Origin: a candidate division WOR-3 bacterium
GTDB lineage: Bacteria; Hydrothermota; Tepidihabitantia; Tepidihabitantales; DTDR01
Assembly: GCA_039801885.1 (NCBI GenBank)
Contig: JBDRVN010000027.1
Span: 1-21,622 of the forward strand
Reading direction: 5' to 3'
DNA length: 21,622 bases
Position numbers and translations under genes: made by a program. The first letter of the stretch is position 1; each line of letters begins with the position of its first letter. Shown here piece after piece: positions 2,124 through 20,999 of this stretch. The notes beneath the pieces are model-generated. The model did not search any database and was not told where the DNA came from. It was given only the letters and a program-made list of their open reading frames with translations.

Positions 2124-2482
2124 CTAAAATTTACTTTAAAATATGTAATAGACTAAGACATCGTTACCGGTTATGTAAAGAAAATAACCAAAAGCATAAT
2201 AATCTGAAATAATAACTAAGGGCTTGGTGGAGAATAAATAAGATTCTAAAAGGTAGTATGAAAATATTATAAAACCAAAATATTTATTCAAGAAATTCTA
2301 AGATATTTAACCGGTTTCTTAGTTATTATTATAAACCATTATATTTCTTATTATTATCTTTTTTTTTTATAATTTTTAAAAACTAAATCCTATACTATCT
2401 CCTATACTGCTCCCTTTTTAATAGAAAGTAAAATCCCCTTGTTCTAATAAGATAGATTTTAGAAAATATATAAAAAAGAGAT

Positions 2483-2632
2483 TTATTTAAGTATTAAGTA
2501 AAGAAAAATCAATACCTTAGGCACCTCCTTTTTAGGTTTATCTTTTAGTAATTCTTTCTTAATCAAAATCCCAAAATCTAATACCCTCCTTATTCCATAA
2601 TACCGGTATTTTGATTTCCAAATTATCCCCAT
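2483..2632 (-). CDS. Putative leaderless small protein, 49 aa (not in ORF track): MGIIWKSKYRYYGIRRVLDFGILIKKELLKDKPKKEVPKVLIFLYLILK
   Basis: ATG 8 nt after the CGTA box of the repeat promoter. It shares start context, stop codon position and 11/16 C-terminal residues with ORF 20406-20657. Confidence 0.45.
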   Translation of the reverse strand: MGIIWKSKYRYYGIRRVLDFGILIKKELLKDKPKKEVPKVLIFLYLILK

Positions 2633-2640
2633 ATATATAA

Positions 2641-2666
2641 TACGAAAAAAGAGCCCCAAAGGTTAC
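2641..2666 (-). promoter_or_regulatory. ECF-sigma-like promoter GTAAC-N17-CGTA (repeat copy 1)
   Basis: Matches the generic ECF pattern (AAC at -35, CGT at -10). Boxes and spacing are conserved in copy 2. Confidence 0.55.
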
Positions 2667-2680
2667 CACTTTTTTATTAC

Positions 2681-2708
2681 TTGAAATTTAAATTCAAATT
2701 TCTATAAT
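2681..2708 (+). promoter_or_regulatory. sigma70-like promoter, leaderless arrangement
   Basis: TTGAAA 2681-2686, 16-bp spacer, TATAAT 2703-2708, 7 nt to ATG 2716, no SD. Confidence 0.65.
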
Positions 2709-4870: not shown

Positions 4871-7303
4871 ATGCAGGATAGATTTACCAATCGTTTAAGA
4901 AAAGTTATTAACATTGCCCGTCAGGAGGCAATTAGAATGCATCATGATTATATTGGTTCCGAACATTTACTTTTAGGAATTGTAAAGGAAGGCGAGGGGG
5001 TTGCGGCGTTAGTTTTATCCAATTTGGGAATTGAAAGAGACGAATTGATTTCGGCAATTGAAAATGCCATAAGTTATGGCAAAACTCCAATTATTTTAGG
5101 TGAAATTCCTTTAAATCAGGAGGCAAGGAGGATTTTAAATTATGCGATGGAAGAGGCGAGGAGGATGAACCATTCTTATATCGGTACTGAACATCTTTTA
5201 TTAGGAATATTAAGAGAAGACCAATCAGTTGCGGCCCAAGTTTTGTTCTCCTTAGGAATTGATATTGATATTGTTCGCAGCGAAATAATGAAGGTTTTAG
5301 AAGGCGAAACAGTTAGTCAATCTATTCCAAAAGGTAAATCTAAAACACCCGCTTTAGATTATTTCTCAAGGGATTTAACCCAATTGGCAAGAGAAGATAA
5401 ACTTGACCCAATTATTGGTCGAGAAAAAGAGATTGAGAGGGTTATCCAAATATTGGTTAGAAGAAAGAAAAATAATCCCGTTTTAATTGGTGAAGCCGGT
5501 GTTGGTAAAACCGCAATTGTTGAAGGACTTGCCCAAAGGATTGTTGAGGGAAGAGTTCCTTCTCTATTAAAAAATAAAAGGGTTTTGGCATTAGATTTAC
5601 CAGCCTTAATTGCCGGTACAAAATACCGAGGTCAGTTTGAAGAGAGAATGAAGACAGTGCTTAATGAGATAACGAAATCGGGCGATGTTATCATTTTTAT
5701 TGATGAATTACACACAATTGTTGGTGCCGGTGCTGCGGAAGGAGCGATCGATGCCTCTAATATTTTAAAACCGGCATTAGCAAGAGGAGAAATTCAATGT
5801 ATTGGTGCCACTACTTTTGAAGAATATCGAAAGTATATTGAAAAACATTCAGCATTAGAAAGAAGATTTCAGCCAATTATTGTTGAACCGCCATCCGTTT
5901 CTGAAACGATAAAAATTTTACAAGGTTTAAAAGAGAAATACGAATTACATCATGGGGTAATTTATACTGATGAAGCCTTAGAGGCTTGTGCTTATCTTGC
6001 TGACCGGTATATTACTGATCGCTATTTACCCGACAAAGCGATAGATGTGATGGATGAAGCCGGTGCTCGGGTAAAATTGTTAAGACCAGTTTTCAATCCT
6101 GATATTGAAGAATTGGAGAGAAGGATTGAAAGGGTAAAAAAATTAAAAGAAGAAGCAGTAAGAAAACAGGAGTTCGAAAAGGCAGCAGAAATCAGAGATG
6201 AACAGAGGAGGTTAACAGAATTTTTGAAGAGAAAGAGAAAGGAAATTGAAAAGAAAGGTGGTTTTCCGACGGTTATTCCCGAAGATATTGCTCAAGTTGT
6301 TTCAATGTGGTCGGGAATTCCTTTACAAAAGATTGAAGAGAGTGAACAACAGAAGCTTTTGAAAATGGAAGAGGAATTAAAGAAAAGGATTGTTGGTCAG
6401 GACCACGCAATTGAAGTAGTTGCCCAGGCAACGAGAAGAAGTCGGGCAGGAATTAAAGATCCAAGAAGACCAATCGGTTCTTTTATATTTTTGGGTCCTA
6501 CTGGCGTTGGTAAAACTGAATTGGCAAGGGTATTGGCAAGGTTTCTCTTTGGGCACGAAGATGCCTTAATAAGGCTTGATATGTCTGAATATATGGAAAA
6601 ATTTAATGTCTCAAGATTAATTGGTGCACCACCTGGTTATGTGGGTTATGAAGAAGGTGGCCAATTAACTGAGAAAGTGAGGAGAAAACCTTATTCAGTG
6701 GTTTTGTTTGACGAAATTGAAAAAGCCCATCCGGATGTTTTTAATATTTTATTACAAATTTTAGAAGATGGTCAATTAACCGATGCCTTTGGCCGGAGGA
6801 TCAATTTTAGAAATTGTGTGATTATAATGACATCAAATATTGGTACTGCGGAAATAAAGAAATCAAGCGGTTTTGGTTTTGCTTCAGTTAGTCCAGAAGA
6901 AAGTTATGAGAAGATGAAAGAAAGGATTTTAATGGAAGTGAAAAAAGTCTTCCGACCGGAATTTATTAATCGGGTAGATGAGATTATTGTCTTTAGGTCC
7001 TTAGGAAAAGAGGAAATGGAAAAGATTGTTGATATTCAGATTAATGATATAAATGAGAGATTAAAAGAGAAAGGTTTAAAATTGGTTTTATCTCCGGAAG
7101 CAAAAGAGGTTCTTGTTGAACAGGGCTTTGATCCGGAATACGGTGCCCGACCATTAAAGAGAGCAATAAGAAGATTGATTGAAGACCCCTTAGCCGAAGA
7201 GATATTAAAAGGAAAATTTAAAGAAAGTTCTATTGTCTATATTGAAAGGGAAGGAAACGAATTACGTTTTGTTGCCAAAAAACCAGAAGAACTAAAAGTT
7301 TAA
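4871..7303 (+). CDS. clpC: ATP-dependent Clp protease ATP-binding subunit ClpC
   Basis: Two Clp-N repeats (EHLLLG), Walker A motifs GEAGVGKT and [11 protein letters not shown]-like middle domain ([11 protein letters not shown]), GYVGY pore loop, ClpP-docking 'FGF' loop, 810 aa. Confidence 0.95.
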
Positions 7304-9542: not shown

Positions 9543-10073
9543 TTACCAAATAAAAGTAATCTTTTTTATTTCATAATAGTCACCGGTTTGAAATTTTAAA
9601 AAATAGATGCCGGGATTAACCTTTCGCTGAAAGTTATTTTCGCCTTGCCAGTTGATTGAGTAGATACCAGGTTTTTTATTTTCATTAATCAATATCTTTA
9701 TAATCCTTCCCATTCGGTCATAAATAAAAAGTTTTACATTACTTTGATTTTTAAGGGAGAAAAGAATTCTTGTTTTATGAAAGAAAGGATTAGGAAAGGG
9801 GTTATATAATTTTGTTTCTAACTGATAGGGATTTGGTAATTCTTCCTTTTCTTTAATATTTACCTGTGGTTCTCTTATCCAGAAACCAATAAAACCAAGA
9901 TAATTAGGGCTTGTTAGATAGCCGATAGCATTTTGCGAAAGAGAATTTTTTGCTTGATAATTGGTATTAGTTAAATTTTTTCCACCGCTGTTTATTGTAT
10001 ACCAATCACAATAATATTGAGAAAAAGCATAAGAAATAAAAAGAAGAAAAAGAAAGATTTTTAGTTTACTCAT
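9543..10073 (-). CDS. Small secreted protein with C-terminal FlgD-Ig / T9SS-like domain
   Basis: Signal peptide; short 'WYTINSGG...SLSQ...GFW' module; 'PFPNPF...IYDRMGR...PGIYSINWQG...VNPGIYF'. Overlaps the upstream gene by 8 nt. Confidence 0.8.
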   Translation of the reverse strand: MSKLKIFLFLLFISYAFSQYYCDWYTINSGGKNLTNTNYQAKNSLSQNAIGYLTSPNYLGFIGFWIREPQVNIKEKEELPNPYQLETKLYNPFPNPFFHKTRILFSLKNQSNVKLFIYDRMGRIIKILINENKKPGIYSINWQGENNFQRKVNPGIYFLKFQTGDYYEIKKITFIW

Positions 10074-12093
10074 TCTTCCTCCCTTTTTCCTTTAACAATT
10101 TTTCCCATTCTTCTTTTGCCTTTCGGGATGTTTCGTATTCTTTTAATATACCAAAGGCAATCCAATCAAAAGAGATATTAGTATTATCTCCCCAGTTAGG
10201 AATTTTCTTTAAGGTTATTTCAAAACCATTTGTTTTAATTCTGCTTATATAAAGTAAACCAGTAGGCTCTTCTTTCGGAGTAACAATAATTCTAACCGGA
10301 ATGTCGGTTCTAATATTTTGGGAAAAGATTTCTGGAAAAGAGATTTCGGCTTTGCCATTATTGAGTCTTCCACTACCAGCAGTAATTATCGATAAATCGG
10401 GACTGATAATACAAGGTGCTTCTTTGTCATCCAAAAGGCCACCAGTATACCAACCACCAGTCGCATAACCACGACCATAGGCTTGGATAGCAGTATCGGT
10501 TGCCACATTGCCATAGGCATGAGCATAAATTCCTTCGGCTCCGCTATTACCGGCAGAAAAATCACCACCCGCTTGGTCTCCGCTCGCTTGCATACCATAA
10601 TTACCAGCATTATAAACAGTTACACCATAAAGACCAGCCTGGCTAATATGTACACCATAATTCGTAGCATTGTTAATATAGATACCATAAAAAGAAGGAT
10701 TGGAAATATTCAGACCATAACTGGCTCGGTTTATTGTTATACCATTAGAGACGGTATCAATATAAATACCGTTATAGGCACTATCAATATAAATGCCATA
10801 AGAAGATGCCCGATCTACTGATAAACCAACACTTGTTCTTAGAATACCAACACCTAATGGTGCATAACGTATATCAATGCCGGTGCTGGCACTATCAATT
10901 TGCATACCTTTATAGGCACTGTCAATAAAGACGCCGCTTCCTGAACAACGATATACCCGCAAACCGTAATTTCTTGCTCGGGAAATATTTACAGCATAAT
11001 TAGCATTACTGACGATAACTCCATTCTCAGTAGTGCCGGTGTAAACACCATAAAGAGCGCTATCAACCGATAAACCATAGTTACCTGCTCGGTAAACCCT
11101 TAAGCCTGTTTGGGCGCGATTTATATTAAAACCATAAGTAGCAGCACTATCAATATTGATACCAGTATAAGTTGCTCGACCGATAGTAAGGCCGGTGCTC
11201 GCCGATTTCACCCAAACACCGGCACCAGCTGGTGTGGTATCAATTGCTAAACCAGCACCATTACCCGTGTTTTTGATATGGATTATTGCATTAGGATAAC
11301 TAACATTTCCACTAAGAGTGCAAGGTTTAAAAATATCAACTCCTCTTATTGAATTATCAGTAATCTTTTGGGAATTGACAACTTCGTTAGCAATTAATGG
11401 ATTGGGATAATTACCGGTTAAATCGCCACCGGCTGGACCGGTTGGCGGTAAGCCAGTAATAGCAACATTAGTGGCATTTGTTATCTGTCCTTTTTCATTA
11501 ACGGTGATTTGGGCAACATTTGTTGCATCACCATAAGTGCCAGCAGTAACACCGGTAGCAGCTAAATCATCGGCAACAATTGTGCCGTCTTGAATTTCAT
11601 CGGTATTTATTGGTGGACTAATTGGTCTTTGGATTTGGGCATTTAAGGCATAATTGGCGCTATCGGCTTTTCTTGATAGATAAGAGTAGGCATTACTAAC
11701 AATTCTTATTCTTGGTGTCATTGGTGAATGAGGGTTTACTTGCATTTCTAAATAACAATTGCCATCAATCGGAAGAGAAGAAATTGGCGCGACACTTCCT
11801 AAAAGGACATTAAAAAGCCCAGATTGGGTTTGAACATTTTGGGTTTCGTTCCAAAAGGCAGTGCCACCAGTAGGAGAAGTAAATAAGCGAAAAGTTATTG
11901 AATAAATAGAATCTAAAACTGGTTGACCATTAATATCAGTAAGTTTTCCTTGAAAATTAAGCATCAAGGGAATAGTAATTTGGTCGGTATTAGGAGAGAT
12001 AGGTTTTAAGGAATTTAAAGAACTGAGTGTCGGAGGATTAGCAAAAACAATAAAAAAGAGGATTAATAAAAAAATTAAAGAATTTTTAAACAT
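10066..12093 (-). CDS. Secreted fibre/adhesin-like protein with predicted right-handed beta-helix
   Basis: SD AAGGAGGT and signal peptide; 'LNFQGKLTD..GQP....YSITFRLF...TGGTAFWNETQ...GLFNVLLG' domain; tail-fibre-like 'GVTAGTYG...ITVNEKGQIT'; 'AGGDLTGNYPNP'; many 10-11-aa G-x-x-I-x-x-A repeats; charged C-terminal helix. Confidence 0.75.
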   Translation of the reverse strand: MFKNSLIFLLILFFIVFANPPTLSSLNSLKPISPNTDQITIPLMLNFQGKLTDINGQPVLDSIYSITFRLFTSPTGGTAFWNETQNVQTQSGLFNVLLGSVAPISSLPIDGNCYLEMQVNPHSPMTPRIRIVSNAYSYLSRKADSANYALNAQIQRPISPPINTDEIQDGTIVADDLAATGVTAGTYGDATNVAQITVNEKGQITNATNVAITGLPPTGPAGGDLTGNYPNPLIANEVVNSQKITDNSIRGVDIFKPCTLSGNVSYPNAIIHIKNTGNGAGLAIDTTPAGAGVWVKSASTGLTIGRATYTGINIDSAATYGFNINRAQTGLRVYRAGNYGLSVDSALYGVYTGTTENGVIVSNANYAVNISRARNYGLRVYRCSGSGVFIDSAYKGMQIDSASTGIDIRYAPLGVGILRTSVGLSVDRASSYGIYIDSAYNGIYIDTVSNGITINRASYGLNISNPSFYGIYINNATNYGVHISQAGLYGVTVYNAGNYGMQASGDQAGGDFSAGNSGAEGIYAHAYGNVATDTAIQAYGRGYATGGWYTGGLLDDKEAPCIISPDLSIITAGSGRLNNGKAEISFPEIFSQNIRTDIPVRIIVTPKEEPTGLLYISRIKTNGFEITLKKIPNWGDNTNISFDWIAFGILKEYETSRKAKEEWEKLLKEKGRKNE

Positions 12094-14026: not shown

Positions 14027-14869
14027 TTAAAAGTTTATAGAAAAAGAACTCCTTTTCTTAAACCATTTTAGAAAATTTTGTAATTTATTTTTATCAAAAA
14101 TATCTTTTATATGTATTACATGAAGATATCCATAACGGGAAAAATAAATTCCTAGTTTATTTATTTTATATTTAGATGGCATCTTATAAATACCGCCTAG
14201 TTTATATAAGACATAATATCCTATTAGTTGATTAAAATGTTTTCTTTTTAATTTGAATTCTTTTGTTGTTTTTATTTCAATTATCATATCGTCAATCACT
14301 AAATCTGCATCAGCTTTCCCAATTAATAATGGTATATTTTTAAATAACGGATTTAATATACATAAATATTTTGCCCTAAATATTCTTGGATTTACAATAG
14401 AAATTAATTTTTTTAAATCTTTAATATCTTTGGAATCGATGATTCCAATTTTATTTCTTATATTTTCTAAATAAGAAGGACCCGCTCTATATATAAGCTC
14501 TAATTGAGCAAGTAACAAAGCAGATTTTATTAGGTTATTATTTATTTTTCCATTTTGGAGAAAAATTGAATAATTTTTTCTGGCATCCGATATTATTTTG
14601 CTTGCTTTTTCATATAAATTTTTATCATCTTTTATTAATTCAAGAGTTATTTCAGCTGCCAACTTTTCAGTAATCATAATCACGTTTGGATTTAAATATT
14701 TTATATAAAAACGTAAAAGATAATCAAAAGCTGTTCCAACCAAGCTATAATTTTTCGTTAATGGTGGAGCTAATAATTTTTTTCTAATATTAAATTTAGG
14801 TATCAGAAATTCTTGTTTAAATTTCTTTTTCACATCTTGATTCTCTTCTAAAAATGATTTAAGACTCAT
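14027..14869 (-). CDS. Hypothetical protein, PD-(D/E)xK nuclease superfamily
   Basis: 'VGTAFDYLLR' and 'ADADLVIDDMIIEIKT....QLIGY' fit RecB-like motifs (G...; D...ExK; QxxxY). Confidence 0.7.
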   Translation of the reverse strand: MSLKSFLEENQDVKKKFKQEFLIPKFNIRKKLLAPPLTKNYSLVGTAFDYLLRFYIKYLNPNVIMITEKLAAEITLELIKDDKNLYEKASKIISDARKNYSIFLQNGKINNNLIKSALLLAQLELIYRAGPSYLENIRNKIGIIDSKDIKDLKKLISIVNPRIFRAKYLCILNPLFKNIPLLIGKADADLVIDDMIIEIKTTKEFKLKRKHFNQLIGYYVLYKLGGIYKMPSKYKINKLGIYFSRYGYLHVIHIKDIFDKNKLQNFLKWFKKRSSFSINF

Positions 14870-14892
14870 TATATAATTTATATATTTTAATT

Positions 14893-15117
14893 TTATGTGA
14901 TTATTTCAATTATTTTATCTTTACTTTTTTCGCCTTTAATAATCTTTATTTGTCCTTTTCTCACATTAAAATATTCGGCTAAAATTTCAATCAAGACTTT
15001 ATTTGCTTTTCCTTCGATTGGTGGAGCAGTTAAATAAACTTTTAATCTATTTTCTTCTTTTACTACCTCATTCTTTTTGGCGTTAGGAATAACTCGTATT
15101 TTTATTATGTTATTCAA
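14893..15117 (-). CDS. DUF167 (YggU/UPF0235) family protein
   Basis: 'V.PNAKKN...LKV.LTAPP.EGKAN..LI..LA.YF.V....I.I.KGE.SKDK'. Confidence 0.9.
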   Translation of the reverse strand: MNNIIKIRVIPNAKKNEVVKEENRLKVYLTAPPIEGKANKVLIEILAEYFNVRKGQIKIIKGEKSKDKIIEIIT

Positions 15118-15700
15118 TTGCTTTCACCAATAACTCGGCAAGAATTTTTGCGTTTTTAATTGGATTGAGGTCTTTGTCTTTTTTAACATCGCCTTTTCCA
15201 CCGACACCGAAATAGGGATAGGATTTCATCGTAACTGGTTTCATTTTAAGGCATAAAGCAAAATTGAAAAGATGTTCTAATACTGGACGCGGGTCGTCTC
15301 CGCCACAAACAGCGATAAGACCGCAAGGTTTATCATTTAAAGGGGAAGATTCTTTAAATCCTCTCATCTCATAAAAATAGGATAAGCAAGCAAGTCTTTC
15401 CATAAAGGCGGTTAATCTTGATGGTATTTTAAAATAGAGCGGTGAGCCGATAACAATAGCATCAGCCTTCTTCATCTTATCAAAAATATTTGATAGATCA
15501 TCTTTTATGACACATTTATAAGGCTTTTTTGAACATAAATTATAACAAGCACGACAGGGTTCGATATTCAATTCGGAAATATGGATTATTTCTGAAATAA
15601 TATTTGGATTAATTATTCTGGCTGATTTCATTACTGTTTCTACTAAAAGATTAGTATTTCCTTTCTTTCTCATTGAGCCAACTATTCCCAATATTTTCAT
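15110..15700 (-). CDS. Flavodoxin family / iron-sulfur flavoprotein (NADPH-dependent FMN reductase family)
   Basis: GSMRKKGNT FMN loop, Cys cluster CRACYNLC..KC, ADAIVIGSPLY; SD AAGGAGGT. Confidence 0.85.
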   Translation of the reverse strand: MKILGIVGSMRKKGNTNLLVETVMKSARIINPNIISEIIHISELNIEPCRACYNLCSKKPYKCVIKDDLSNIFDKMKKADAIVIGSPLYFKIPSRLTAFMERLACLSYFYEMRGFKESSPLNDKPCGLIAVCGGDDPRPVLEHLFNFALCLKMKPVTMKSYPYFGVGGKGDVKKDKDLNPIKNAKILAELLVKAIE

Positions 15701-15733
15701 TTTACCTCCTTGTTGCTAATTTAATTATTTCAC

Positions 15734-16477
15734 TTAACATAGGTCAACATATTTTATCCAAAACATTAGTCTACCGTATTTATCTCTAATTTTTATCCAA
15801 CCAAGAGGTTCAATCCACTCTTCGTTAGTATCATAATTAAAATGGAAGATTCCTATTTTTATAAATTCGTCTTTCTGTCCTATTATTTTAAATAAGGAAT
15901 ATTTATATTCATCCTTTGAAATTATTATAAAATCAGCATCATTTTTCGGTTCTTTATAAACTTTTCTTTTCCCATTTTCGGTAAAATAGAAAATGTTGAT
16001 AAAGAAGTTATTAGGAATAGGTATACTATCTACCATTAAAATATCGGTGTAAAAATTTTTTTCTATTTCTTTTATATTCACCCATATTTTTAAATTCCTT
16101 ATTGGGTCATAGACAATACATAAAAATTGTTCAAATTTATCTACGATTGGATAACGATAATTTTCAATATATAATTCATCTATTGGCGGATGGAATCCAA
16201 AATTACTAATGGGAATAGTTTTTTTAACTTTCAGAGTTTTCTCATAAATAAATTTTTTCCCCTTTTTAAAATAGCCTTTTAATTTTGTTCCCTTTTTTAT
16301 ACCGGAATTTATCGTTAAAATTCCAATAGTATTTTTTAGAACATCTTTTGAAATATCTTTGTATTCAATATGATATTTTTCATAAGGAGCATCGGCAAAT
16401 AAAGGTAAAGAATATATCAAGATGATCAAACCTAACACAAACATTTTTAAGAAGTGAGATTTTTTAGTTTTATTCAT
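15734..16477 (-). CDS. Hypothetical exported protein
   Basis: 247-aa ORF with signal peptide (..LPLFA); ATGA overlap with the upstream gene; no family recognised. Confidence 0.65.
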   Translation of the reverse strand: MNKTKKSHFLKMFVLGLIILIYSLPLFADAPYEKYHIEYKDISKDVLKNTIGILTINSGIKKGTKLKGYFKKGKKFIYEKTLKVKKTIPISNFGFHPPIDELYIENYRYPIVDKFEQFLCIVYDPIRNLKIWVNIKEIEKNFYTDILMVDSIPIPNNFFINIFYFTENGKRKVYKEPKNDADFIIISKDEYKYSLFKIIGQKDEFIKIGIFHFNYDTNEEWIEPLGWIKIRDKYGRLMFWIKYVDLC

Positions 16478-17019
16478 AATTCCAGTCTCATTAAAGGGAA
16501 TTCTTTATCATTTTTATATATATTAAATCCATTTTTCAAATAAAATTCAATAGGACCCGATGGATTTTCTTCTCTACCTTTTCGGGCAAAGGTTTCAACT
16601 GCTTTTAGTCCTCTTTTCTTTAAATCGTCGATTATTTTTTTGAGAAGTTGGCTACCAATTCCATATCTTCTTAACTCTCTTTTAGGAATAAATAAACACG
16701 AAATCAATATGGCATCGTCACTGGGCATAGATGGGTAATTAAATGAATTGGGAAGAAACTGAGGAGGAGCATATTGGGCATAGCCGGCAGGTTTTCCATC
16801 AGCATAGGCGATCATTCCACAGTTACCAAATATTTTCTTTGTATTAAGTAGCCAATTTAATTTCTTTCTTAACATATCTTCTTTCTTCTCTTTTTTTGGG
16901 TCTATACATTCTTCTGGGAATTCCCAATAGATACAATATTTACAACTAAAAGGATGGCTATCCCATTCCGGAGCATACTTTAAATTTTCCTCATCAAGAT
17001 TAACTATTTCAATTTTCAT
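16474..17019 (-). CDS. GNAT-family N-acetyltransferase (YoaP-like)
   Basis: 'GYAQYAP', 'ISCLFI....RRYGIGSQLL' acetyl-CoA motif, 'FY.KNGF'; N-terminal CKYC. Confidence 0.85.
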   Translation of the reverse strand: MKIEIVNLDEENLKYAPEWDSHPFSCKYCIYWEFPEECIDPKKEKKEDMLRKKLNWLLNTKKIFGNCGMIAYADGKPAGYAQYAPPQFLPNSFNYPSMPSDDAILISCLFIPKRELRRYGIGSQLLKKIIDDLKKRGLKAVETFARKGREENPSGPIEFYLKNGFNIYKNDKEFPLMRLEL

Positions 17020-17102
17020 TTTTTTATTATTTTAATAAGACAAAAGTTCGTGCAGGGGTCATACGCATAATTTATTATACAATAAATAAAAATAAACTTG
17101 CT

Positions 17103-18962
17103 TTACAGTACGGTGACACTCTTTGCTAAATGTCTTGGTTTATCAACATCGCAACCCCGTAAGCAGGCAATGTGATAGGCAAAAAGTTGGAGGGGAATTG
17201 CTACCAAAATTGGTGTTAAAAATTCAATCGTTTCTGGTAGATAGAAAATATCTTCGGAGATTTCTTTTAATCTTTTATCATTCTCATTACCGATGGCAAC
17301 AATTCTTCCACCCCTTGCTTTTGCTTCCATAATATTGGAAATCATTTTTTCATAAGTGGAATCTTTTACACAAATAGAGATGACGGGTGTCTCTTCACTA
17401 ATAACGGAAATTGGTCCGTGTTTCATCTCACCGGCTGGATAGCCGGCAGCGTGGATATAAGAAATCTCTTTTAATTTTAAAGCACCTTCTAAGGCACTGG
17501 GATAGTTAATTCCCCTTCCTAAAAAGACAAAATGGGGAGAGTTATAATATTTCTTTGCTACTTTTTTGATTATCTTATCTAAAAGTAATGCTTTCTTAAT
17601 CTTTTCTGGTATAATTTTTAATTCTTTTAAATAATTTTCTAATTTCTCTCGATTAATTTTTTCTCTTATTAAGGCAAAATATAGTGCCAAAATAAATAGA
17701 TTAAGAATTTGGGCAGTATATGCCTTGGTAGAAGCAACACCAATTTCCGGACCAGCATTTATAAAAATAACATTATCAGCTTCTCTATCCATTGATGACC
17801 TTTTCACATTTAAGATTGCCAAATTTTTTATCTTTCTCTCTTTTGCCTCTCTTAATGCCATTAAGGTATCAGCAGTTTCACCCGATTGGGAAATGGCAAT
17901 CATTAAAGTATTGTTATTAAATAGAAAAGGTCTTGATAATAATTCAGAAGCAATCTCAACATTGGTTGGTATTTCACTTATCTTTTCAAAATAATCTCTG
18001 CCGATTAAACCTGCGTGATAAGAAGTTCCGCAGGCTTGAATTACAATATTACTAATATCTTTTATATCCTCCGGATAAAGATGGAAACTTTCGCCTAAAA
18101 GAATTTCTTTCTCATATATTCTTGTTTCTAAGTTCTCTTTTAAGATTTTAGGTTGTTCATATATCTCTTTTCTCATAAAATGGCGATATCTTCCTTTGCT
18201 TACCTCTTTTGCCTTTAAGTCAATTTTTACGCTTTCCTTTTCTATCTCTTTACCTTCTTCATTATAGAAACTAACTTTATCTTTTCTTAAAAAGCAGATT
18301 TCACCATCCTCCATAATATAAACCTTTTTACAGATACCAACCAATGCCAAGATATCCGAAGCAATCATTCCTTCATTTTTACCAATTCCGCAAAGAAGTG
18401 GACTCCCTTTTTTTATACCAATAAGAAAATCAAAAAGGGAAGAGATAAGGCAAAGGGCAAAACTCCCTTTTAATTCTTTTAATGTCTCACAAAGGGCTTT
18501 TAAAAAACCTTTTTCGGTTAAATTATCTTTCTTGATCTTTTCTTCTAAGAGATGGACAATCACTTCGGTATCGGTTTCGCTTTCAAATTTATGACCATTA
18601 TTAATAAGTTTTTCTTTTAACTCCTGAAAATTTTCAATTATCCCATTATGGACAATTGCTAAAATTTTTTGGCAGTCTAAAAAAGGATGGGCATTTTCGT
18701 CGCTTACCTTTCCGTGGGTTGCCCAGCGGGTATGACCAATACCAATTAAAGTATCTCCTTCTTTGTAAGAAAATAGGGGAGTAGAATTTAAAATCTCTTT
18801 TAATTTAAATAATCGGCCAGCAGTCTTTTTAATAAAGATTTTATCTTGATAATTGATAGCAATTCCACAAGAATCATATCCCCGATATTCTAATCTTTCT
18901 AAGGCAACCAACAAAACTGAAACAATATCCCGCGAACCAATATAGCCAACAATTCCACACAT
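17103..18962 (-). CDS. glmS: Glutamine--fructose-6-phosphate transaminase
   Basis: MCGIVG, LEYRGYDS, GHTRWATHG, HNGIIEN, SQSGETADT, GVASTKAY, GALKLKE, LAKSVT. Confidence 0.97.
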   Translation of the reverse strand: MCGIVGYIGSRDIVSVLLVALERLEYRGYDSCGIAINYQDKIFIKKTAGRLFKLKEILNSTPLFSYKEGDTLIGIGHTRWATHGKVSDENAHPFLDCQKILAIVHNGIIENFQELKEKLINNGHKFESETDTEVIVHLLEEKIKKDNLTEKGFLKALCETLKELKGSFALCLISSLFDFLIGIKKGSPLLCGIGKNEGMIASDILALVGICKKVYIMEDGEICFLRKDKVSFYNEEGKEIEKESVKIDLKAKEVSKGRYRHFMRKEIYEQPKILKENLETRIYEKEILLGESFHLYPEDIKDISNIVIQACGTSYHAGLIGRDYFEKISEIPTNVEIASELLSRPFLFNNNTLMIAISQSGETADTLMALREAKERKIKNLAILNVKRSSMDREADNVIFINAGPEIGVASTKAYTAQILNLFILALYFALIREKINREKLENYLKELKIIPEKIKKALLLDKIIKKVAKKYYNSPHFVFLGRGINYPSALEGALKLKEISYIHAAGYPAGEMKHGPISVISEETPVISICVKDSTYEKMISNIMEAKARGGRIVAIGNENDKRLKEISEDIFYLPETIEFLTPILVAIPLQLFAYHIACLRGCDVDKPRHLAKSVTVL

Positions 18963-20331: not shown

Positions 20332-20371
20332 GAGTGTTGAATAAGAGCTTATTAAGTTAATAAAAAAAGTG

Positions 20372-20397
20372 GTAACCTTTTGGGGTCTTTTTTCGTA
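20372..20397 (+). promoter_or_regulatory. ECF-sigma-like promoter GTAAC-N17-CGTA (repeat copy 2)
   Basis: GTAAC 20372-20376, CGTA 20394-20397; same spacing as copy 1. Confidence 0.55.
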
Positions 20398-20405
20398 TTA
20401 TATAT

Positions 20406-20657
20406 ATGGGGAGAGTAGAATTAAAAGGATATATTATAGTAATAGATTGTTATCCAAGGGTTGATAAATATACCATTATTAATCCTATGGGCAATTTCAA
20501 AATAATTACAAAGGAAGGCTATTTATCTTTTTACAATTATAATTTCCAAATGGTTTCTAACGATTATTGGAGAAAGGGGTTATTAATTTTAATAAGAAAC
20601 AAATATAAAAAGGAGGTGCTTAAAGCCTGGTATTTTCTTTATTTAATAACTAAATAA
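20406..20657 (+). CDS. Putative leaderless small protein, 83 aa, paralog of 2483-2632
   Basis: 83 open codons in very AT-rich DNA; C-terminus KKEVLKAWYFLYLITK* matches KKEVPKVLIFLYLILK* of copy 1. Confidence 0.45.
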   Translation: MGRVELKGYIIVIDCYPRVDKYTIINPMGNFKIITKEGYLSFYNYNFQMVSNDYWRKGLLILIRNKYKKEVLKAWYFLYLITK

Positions 20658-20971
20658 ATATCTTATTTATATATTTTCTAAAATCTGTATTAATAAAACA
20701 GGAGGATTTTACTTTCTATTGAAAAGGGAGCAGTATAGGAGATAGTATAGAATTTAGTTTTTAAAGATATAATAATTTGAGAAAACTATTTTAAAATGGA
20801 TAAAGATTTCTTTTAAATCTTTTGAAATAAATAAGTTTTGCTTTTGAATGATTATTTTAGTTTTATGATGGTTTTATACTCTGGTTTAGAATTCCTTTTA
20901 TTTTTAGGTTAATTATTATAAGTAAATTTGTTAAGATAGGGTTTTCAAGATAGATAAGAATATAAGATTTT

Positions 20972-20999
20972 TTGACTTTTGATGATAATTTATTATAAT
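20972..20999 (+). promoter_or_regulatory. sigma70-like promoter of gcvT, leaderless arrangement
   Basis: TTGACT 20972-20977, 16-bp spacer, TATAAT 20994-20999, 6 nt to ATG 21006, no SD. Confidence 0.7.

Follow-up and report, generated by a model that had tools for sequence, protein, structure and literature searches.

Dispersed intergenic repeats in a candidate division WOR-3 bacterium as probable remnants of a gene cassette with the capsid fold of archaeal filamentous viruses

The Adnaviria realm has as its hallmark a coat protein of the SIRV2 fold, known from the structures of SIRV2 (3J9X), SSRV1 (6WQ0), the SIRV C-terminus (3F2E), AFV1 (3FBZ/3FBL/5W7G) and SFV1 (6D5F). In the accessible parts of two papers the realm and its capsid are called archaea-specific (PMC13700489, 2026; PMC10848233, 2024) and Adnaviria are described as unconnected to bacterial viruses (PMC10848233, PMC13700489), and the SIRV2 and AFV1 coats are given 12 bp per dimer in the available portion of a third (PMC5517147). 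No report of bacterial SIRV2-fold proteins was found in the literature that we covered (mostly outside subscription journals, and exclusive of supplements). Here we describe a dispersed intergenic repeat of a bacterium which, judged by its sequence, descends from a two-gene cassette with this fold.

The window (the whole analysed stretch of 21,622 nt, contig C27 of the source genome G000, a candidate division WOR-3 bacterium) belongs to an assembly of 1.56 Mb (31% G+C, 91% complete) whose DNA is present in hot-spring metagenomes. An earlier reading of these letters (hereafter the original prediction) had seen in the two largest gaps two diverged inverted copies of one unit with the same order of parts, and the repeat search, BLASTN and alignment all agree. 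The top two inverted pairs in the window are the arms of the two copies (2372-2551 with 20589-20768, 180 nt, 85%, E 1e-54; 2626-2675 with 20363-20412, 50 nt, 96%, E 1e-16), the third-ranked pair spans 44 nt at 75%, and the aligned copies follow an identical order, the weak 3' 40-nt block included. The sigma70-like promoters said to adjoin the copies were recovered at 2681 (+) and 20331 (-), and a third lies at 20972 (+). Two points had to be amended: each copy holds an open frame, and copy 2, although present where it was flagged, is larger (about 20335-20967). We refer to the 5' block of the unit as block A and to the 3' block as block B; the features of the window are the following.

2145..2679, minus strand: whole unit of copy 1 (3' limit approximate; same site filled in G005)
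2642..2667, minus strand: predicted ECF-type promoter of copy 1 (-35 GGTAACC at 2667-2661, 16-nt spacer, -10 CGT at 2644-2642, then an AT run)
2483..2632, minus strand: mini-ORF of copy 1 (49 codons, leaderless start), a deletion derivative of the capsid-fold ORF2 with the last helix kept
2390..2414, minus strand: 3' core of copy 1 (two GTATAG direct repeats 12 nt apart), a candidate protein-binding or nucleation site
2681..2708, plus strand: sigma70-like host promoter (11/12 consensus matches), which copy 1 abuts and points away from
20335..20967, plus strand: complete insertion of copy 2 (G005 has it at this site; G002, G003 and G004 lack it)
20371..20396, plus strand: predicted ECF-type promoter of copy 2 (-35 at 20371-20377, -10 CGT at 20394-20396)
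20406..20657, plus strand: mini-ORF of copy 2 (83 codons), terminating in the last helix of ORF2
20726..20750, plus strand: 3' core of copy 2 (GTATAG repeats, 12-nt-spaced)

Both frames match the second gene of the cassette (ORF2) on the element strand: that of copy 1 aligns with ORF2 residues 65-102 (hhalign, 45% identity, E 6.6e-5) and hits the ORF2 profile (hmmsearch, iE 1.6e-4), that of copy 2 matches ORF2 positions 55-104 (hmmsearch, iE 3.4e-3), and none of the reversed controls fell below iE 0.05. The closest species, G005 (90% identity at the copy 2 region vs 72-82% for the other congeners), matches the copy 1 site (87% over query 895-2351) and holds the same 49-codon frame; in its copy 2 the first ATG is lost by a 17-nt deletion, and a later in-frame ATG opens 70 codons, frameshifted near the end. 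The window is also covered by DNA contigs of four hot-spring runs, in which copy 2 has the G005-type 17-nt deletion together with a 36-nt skip; a joint left by whole-copy removal was absent from the 15 of 171 joints listed. Elsewhere in the window, a secreted-looking protein of 675 aa (10066-12093, minus strand; probably a beta-helix) has periodic repeats of about 30 nt at 10570-11170, and an accessory-gene block (14027-17019, minus strand) shows lower and uneven depth across runs and is apparently strain-variable.

The expectation of many copies genome-wide was borne out: among the nhmmer matches listed for G000, 31/34 for block A and 17/25 for block B have E<0.01 (at least 31 and 17 matches, respectively), and the count is a lower bound since in eight cases a contig breaks off no more than 400 nt past a block A. 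The distance from A to B forms a series of 70-818 nt, and the shortest copies (about 95-107 nt) retain the ends and have lost the middle. Block matches are also present in congeners, so that the anticipated conservation in relatives stands: promoter matches number 27, 22, 12, 4 and 0 per congener (reversed controls 0-1), copy number and diagnostic motif variants being species-specific. Many contig ends of G000 match other contigs (86-94% over 400 nt), which suggests recent gene duplications or strain mixing.

The parent of the series is recognizable in the longest copy (contig C2), in which a ribosome-binding site precedes two ORFs, of 120 and 105 codons, that overlap. ORF1 is intact on contig C40, a full-length but broken copy lies on C14, another copy on C2 holds a single 115-codon paralogue, and ORF2 is itself a paralogue of ORF1 (hhalign 94%, E 1e-7). 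The motif AAAAAGGAGGTGC, apparently Shine-Dalgarno-like, is in fact coding sequence: it represents the K-K-E-V codons of ORF2's last helix. Searched against the PDB, a profile of 20 sequences returned archaeal filamentous-virus coats as its top five hits (SFV1, SIRV2, SSRV1 and AFV1; E 7e-4 to 9e-3), and PF12193 was detected in 9/20 family members at E<=0.1 (best 4e-6; the first member lies below the curated cut-off). Structure comparison of the ORF1 model (pLDDT 89) placed such coats in all top six positions (Z 14.3-9.3, the next, unrelated chain reaching 7.3), with Z 14.3 to 6WQ0 and an rmsd of 1.3 Å over 77 residues to 3F2E; Foldseek puts the same coat entries first, at E 2.6e-3 for the best and never under 1e-3. 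Neither PHROGs, searched with the capsid-fold ORFs, nor the ESM Atlas returned a usable match. On the predicted model, then, the cassette proteins have the SIRV2/Adnaviria capsid fold, and the dN/dS values of intact copies (ORF1 0.10-0.29 in 10 pairs, ORF2 0.08-0.16 in 3 pairs) indicate that their genes are under purifying selection. Two G000 genes (C4, L032:4259-5134; C16, L033:4387-5286) fuse an XRE-HTH to a capsid-fold domain and are candidate system regulators; at the former the 3' end of the XRE-capsid gene is duplicated (L032 about 5020-5140 / 6660-6790, 100/116 nt) across an unrelated 477-aa gene.

We are highly confident that the repeats descend by internal deletion, as non-autonomous forms, from a unit composed of an ECF-type promoter, capsid gene 1, capsid gene 2 and a 3' signal. 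The explanation that we prefer as a whole (this identity, plus a virus-like origin and a satellite-like spread) is held with less assurance, as somewhat the better bet. A virus-like element related to Adnaviria would reside in this bacterial order with the cassette as its structural module, an order-specific ECF sigma factor would switch the cassette on, and the short copies would persist like satellites, their promoter, translatable frame and 12-nt repeat serving as the cis parts for copying or packaging whenever the capsid programme runs. The translatable frame would let the transcript pass Rho, and the peptide sequence itself would count for little. New copies may insert recombinase-free, by a microhomology-type route, into the AT-rich stretches immediately 5' of host promoters, and may afterwards exchange sequence with one another; this route of spread is proposed tentatively, at slightly under an even chance.

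The -35 box reads GGTAACC in 26 and GGTAATC in 2 of the 28 aligned G000 copies, and the -10 CGT falls exactly 16 nt past it in 27/28. This geometry is fixed across copies, with column conservation of 93-100% in the boxes and 46-100% in the spacer. Since the ECF consensus (as given in the part of the source available to us) is 'AAC' / 'CGT' with a -35-proximal T tract (PMC5758882), we infer that block A is an ECF-sigma-type promoter, GGTAACC-N16-CGT, which fits the earlier suggestion that the element has a promoter of its own. G000 encodes five sigma-70-family genes, one of them an ECF gene paired with a 333-aa partner, a pair that is unlinked in this genome. The pair occurs in 16/30 genomes of the order (and weakly in 2/121 others); in the order the ECF gene has its partner in 17/17 loci and a capsid gene within 1.5 kb in 8/17, and this order-specific sigma factor is the candidate activator of the cassette promoter. 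Similar bipartite motifs were seen by eye before the capsid genes of a neighbouring family.

Downstream of the promoter, the short copies show an excess of open frames. A frame that starts at an ATG no more than 75 nt from the promoter stays open into the ORF2 tail in 7/10 copies of G000, 10/13 of G005 and 10/14 of G004; the count covers short copies with the ORF2 tail motif (in G000, 14 units were caught, of which two long ones and two lacking the tail motif are not counted; nor are the units missed by the pattern, among them C28, which is open for 40 codons). Shuffles gave on average less than 1 and at most 4 open frames, and neutral deletion-plus-substitution simulations 0.13-0.44 per copy, an excess that is overstated because the copies share ancestry and were treated as independent. 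Five orthologous pairs give a pooled pN/pS of about 0.7 (single pairs 0.22-1.91), and comparisons among paralogues 0.62-1.08. Given the open-frame excess and the little amino-acid constraint, it seems that the frame rather than the peptide is kept, so that the small-protein family envisaged in the original prediction stands as to its open frames and fares poorly as to amino-acid constraint. Rho is present in 5/5 genomes of the genus, and translation-coupled read-through past Rho is a plausible explanation for the kept frame.

These frames are also where the strongest competing explanation begins, in which the short copies encode selected small proteins: capsid truncations co-induced by the ECF factor and acting as decoys or dominant-negative inhibitors when an incoming related virus assembles its filaments, with the last amphipathic helix kept and diversification fast. 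It draws on the frames kept in 27/37 short copies of three species, on the stop position, often fixed after the helix, and on copy 2 of G005, which regains an in-frame start after losing its first ATG. Between G000/G005 orthologous pairs, moreover, the promoter boxes differ at 0/70 and 2/102 positions vs 20/160 in the spacer, a comparison that partly reflects ascertainment because the G005 loci were chosen by motif. We nevertheless regard such selected proteins as unlikely, for pN/pS in the last 14 codons is 1.08 and 0.89 (vs dN/dS of 0.08-0.29 in the intact genes), some orthologues are frameshifted near the end, and the lengths range from 12 to 83 codons.

The capsid-fold family was found in all 43 sampled genomes of the order (2-22 matches each) and in none of the 158 other WOR-3 genomes sampled; a single query recovered it in 40/41 relatives, and 1,500 clusters match it in a representative library. 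A scan of the species genomes yielded 27 capsid-fold loci, either stand-alone beside core genes, beside ECF sigma factors, or on short multi-capsid contigs; in the capsid gene tree 16/29 inner branches (the backbone) are unresolved. On the short contigs (L084, L090-L093, L071) two or three capsid-fold genes are followed by structural-looking genes, and the bins of these contigs are labelled as other bacteria or an archaeon; they may be free viruses of this lineage. An archaeal host does not fit the capsid genes, given that the flanks are bacterial core genes and the homologous proteins are named candidate division WOR-3. No relatives were found in phage and IMG/VR collections, a scan by few exact patterns that does not imply absence.

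Present in 43/43 genomes and often stand-alone by core genes, the capsid genes look more like host genes than like a virus, and this is the ground for a second alternative: domestication by the host. Here the capsid proteins would coat the chromosome in A-form under stress or dormancy, or would package host DNA in the manner of a filamentous gene transfer agent; the scattered units (promoter plus 12-nt repeat) would be kept as ECF-regulon promoters and nucleation sites. Besides the restriction of the family to the order (0/158 elsewhere), the purifying selection on intact genes, the conserved ECF pair and the XRE-HTH fusions to the same fold speak for it, as does the most conserved part of block B, where GTATAG occurs twice 12 nt apart, a spacing equal to the 12 bp per dimer of SIRV2/AFV1 in the portion seen of PMC5517147. 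Lag-12 identity at block B is 0.49-0.51 vs 0.30 when shuffled, a description rather than an independent test because the search pattern contains both repeats; there are only two repeat units, and the sites are not common to the species. The congener G002 has 0 promoter-pattern matches and one 3' match, hence dispersed sites are not needed in the genus. We consider domestication distinctly less likely than selected small proteins.

Returning to the virus-like origin that we prefer, the same promoter heads a second unit, which starts with an HTH_17 gene. In G003 this long unit (about 3.8 kb) comprises HTH_17, two unknown ORFs, two capsid genes, three unknown ORFs, a peptidase M15 (PHROG endolysin, E 1e-27) and a 236-aa ORF; a G004 contig adds an Hjc resolvase, pieces of the unit lie at contig ends of G000, and in another family ECF, partner, capsid and peptidase M15 are consecutive. 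The 236-aa gene, a putative winged-helix replication initiator, has no Pfam or PHROG match and occurs in 4/66 genomes, all in the genus (a metagenome scan added two short contigs). The long unit is virus-like; in the units seen (chromosomal and partial) there was no integrase, packaging gene or complete or circular genome. In the tree, cassette ORF1 and the capsid genes found in the endolysin unit do not group together, so the cassette and the long unit may share only the promoter. Iteron-like direct repeats follow the HTH_17 gene (L053 about 730-860, L043 about 1740-1800, L004 2850-2880) and could mark a replication origin. A nucleotidyltransferase-HEPN pair (L053:4356-5115) stands directly 3' of the G003 unit, and a five-repeat CRISPR array (L043:1020-1315) upstream of the G004 HTH unit. 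A decayed array with an RHH-like gene (L001:3816-4073) lies just upstream of the intact C2 cassette; the 4 spacers of the one array found (G004) gave 0 matches to the elements.

That the unit moves follows from the copy 2 site, which is empty in 3/4 congeners covering it (G002, G003, G004) and filled in G005. The insertion (about 625 nt, its ends placeable only to about 10 nt owing to AT-rich flanks) separates two divergent -35 boxes, which we take, by names read from translations, to serve phosphoglucosamine-mutase-like and gcvT-like genes. Copy 1 offers no clean empty site, as G003 and G004 have different upstream neighbours there and an oppositely oriented 3'-block-like remnant. Forty further loci (20 each from G005 and G004, a subset of the matches) gave four clean filled/empty pairs against G000 (460-590 nt, gain being indistinguishable from loss), and many of the fetched G005 loci are common to G000; one shared site carries a different subfamily, which points to exchange between copies. 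Lineage-specific gain or loss thus takes place at defined sites. Some copies are old and decayed in place, for the cassette that is intact at the purH end in G002 is represented in G000 by a 107-nt remnant. Because the unit is mobile, patchy conservation alone does not show selection in place: the repeat is indeed conserved, but the selected module that was deduced from its patchiness is not thereby established. At one site (G000 C11 about 16020-17430 vs L117) G005 has an A-B element and G000 an unrelated 1.4-kb gene cassette; a short motif common to some element ends is also found there.

Mobility, together with ends that are kept around a middle lost down to about 95-107 nt, would suit an ordinary MITE-like element whose transposase is missing from fragmented assemblies (the genome is 91% complete, and eight contigs end within 400 nt after the 5' block). 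We find this very unlikely: there are no terminal inverted repeats (blocks A and B are unrelated and none of the 25 longest inverted pairs joins the ends) and no significant target-site duplication, the 6-8 nt junction repeats exceeding shuffles at 1/6 junctions. Neither G000 nor its congeners yielded Y1, reverse transcriptase, IS110, serine resolvase or DDE_Tnp_1, and TnpB was found in none but the nearly copy-free G002, in a search that covered these six transposase/recombinase families, with DDE_Tnp_1 as the DDE representative; the tyrosine recombinases, two per genome, are probably XerC/D. The traceable contig-end copies lead to HTH_17 and capsid/endolysin genes, not to a transposase. Within the families searched, the original judgement that this is no classical IS or MITE is sustained. 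In 12/29 copies the 45 nt upstream contain a sigma70-like promoter that faces outward, vs 4.9% in shuffles.

A structured non-coding RNA family, the other product once proposed for the element, is hardly credible in spite of its own promoter and a 3' non-coding block conserved across three species, since neither copy has an Rfam match at E<=1 (one chance match lies outside the element) or a terminator pattern, the consensus fold of 31 block B sequences reaches -0.42 kcal/mol with 5 pairs, none compensatory, and the 'conserved' middle motif is coding-derived.

What is new is an intergenic repeat tied to a capsid family, with empty sites, a promoter and a candidate sigma factor, an endolysin-bearing long form and kept frames. 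The data suggest that bacteria, too, harbour the virus lineage or a domesticated version of it. A bacterial family that spans a whole order and comes with a bacterial promoter, lysis gene and regulator is relevant to the origin of the coat and to whether such viruses infect bacteria. The short copies matter in themselves, as a dispersed, capsid-gene-derived repeat that moves with no recognisable transposase. At its furthest (a speculative reading, rather doubtful at present) the system could be a branch in bacteria of the filamentous viruses with A-form DNA, or a filamentous GTA tamed from one, resident throughout the WOR-3 order under a dedicated ECF sigma, with satellites packaged and re-inserted transposase-free; such genus-limited satellites would retain the promoter together with a mini-gene of capsid origin and a candidate coat-nucleation signal phased at 12 bp. 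A ready test set is at hand: one orphan sigma factor with about 30 promoters to try it on, a candidate binding site of 25 nt and, for a DNA-wrapping assay, two small soluble proteins.

With regard to known systems, the element works like a non-autonomous satellite or MITE and fails the MITE tests. With MITEs and non-autonomous IS derivatives it has in common many short copies, kept ends, a deleted middle, filled and empty sites and species-specific bursts; it differs in having no terminal inverted repeats, significant target duplication or, among the families searched, cognate transposase, in a parent that encodes capsid-fold proteins, and in a remnant that keeps promoter and open frame. Long-target-duplication insertions (PMC2853133, as far as its accessible part goes) also place genes without a mobile-element enzyme, and the 116-nt duplication around the gene at G000 C4 resembles them, but that class needs duplications over 30 bp and the elements here have 6-8 nt at most. 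Gene transfer agents share with the capsid family clade-wide retention, purifying selection, a host regulator and a lysis gene; known ones use head-tail (HK97) capsids. Closest are the Adnaviria major capsid proteins (3J9X, 6WQ0, 3F2E, 3FBZ/3FBL/5W7G, 6D5F; PF12193), with which the fold is common and sequence similarity detectable, and the tandem paralogue pair of the cassette recalls the heterodimeric lipothrixvirus coats (in the part available of PMC5517147). Adnaviria are filamentous virions with a linear dsDNA genome, whereas the bacterial family, known here from genes alone, resides on bacterial chromosomes in many copies, behind a predicted bacterial ECF-type promoter and beside a peptidoglycan-type peptidase.
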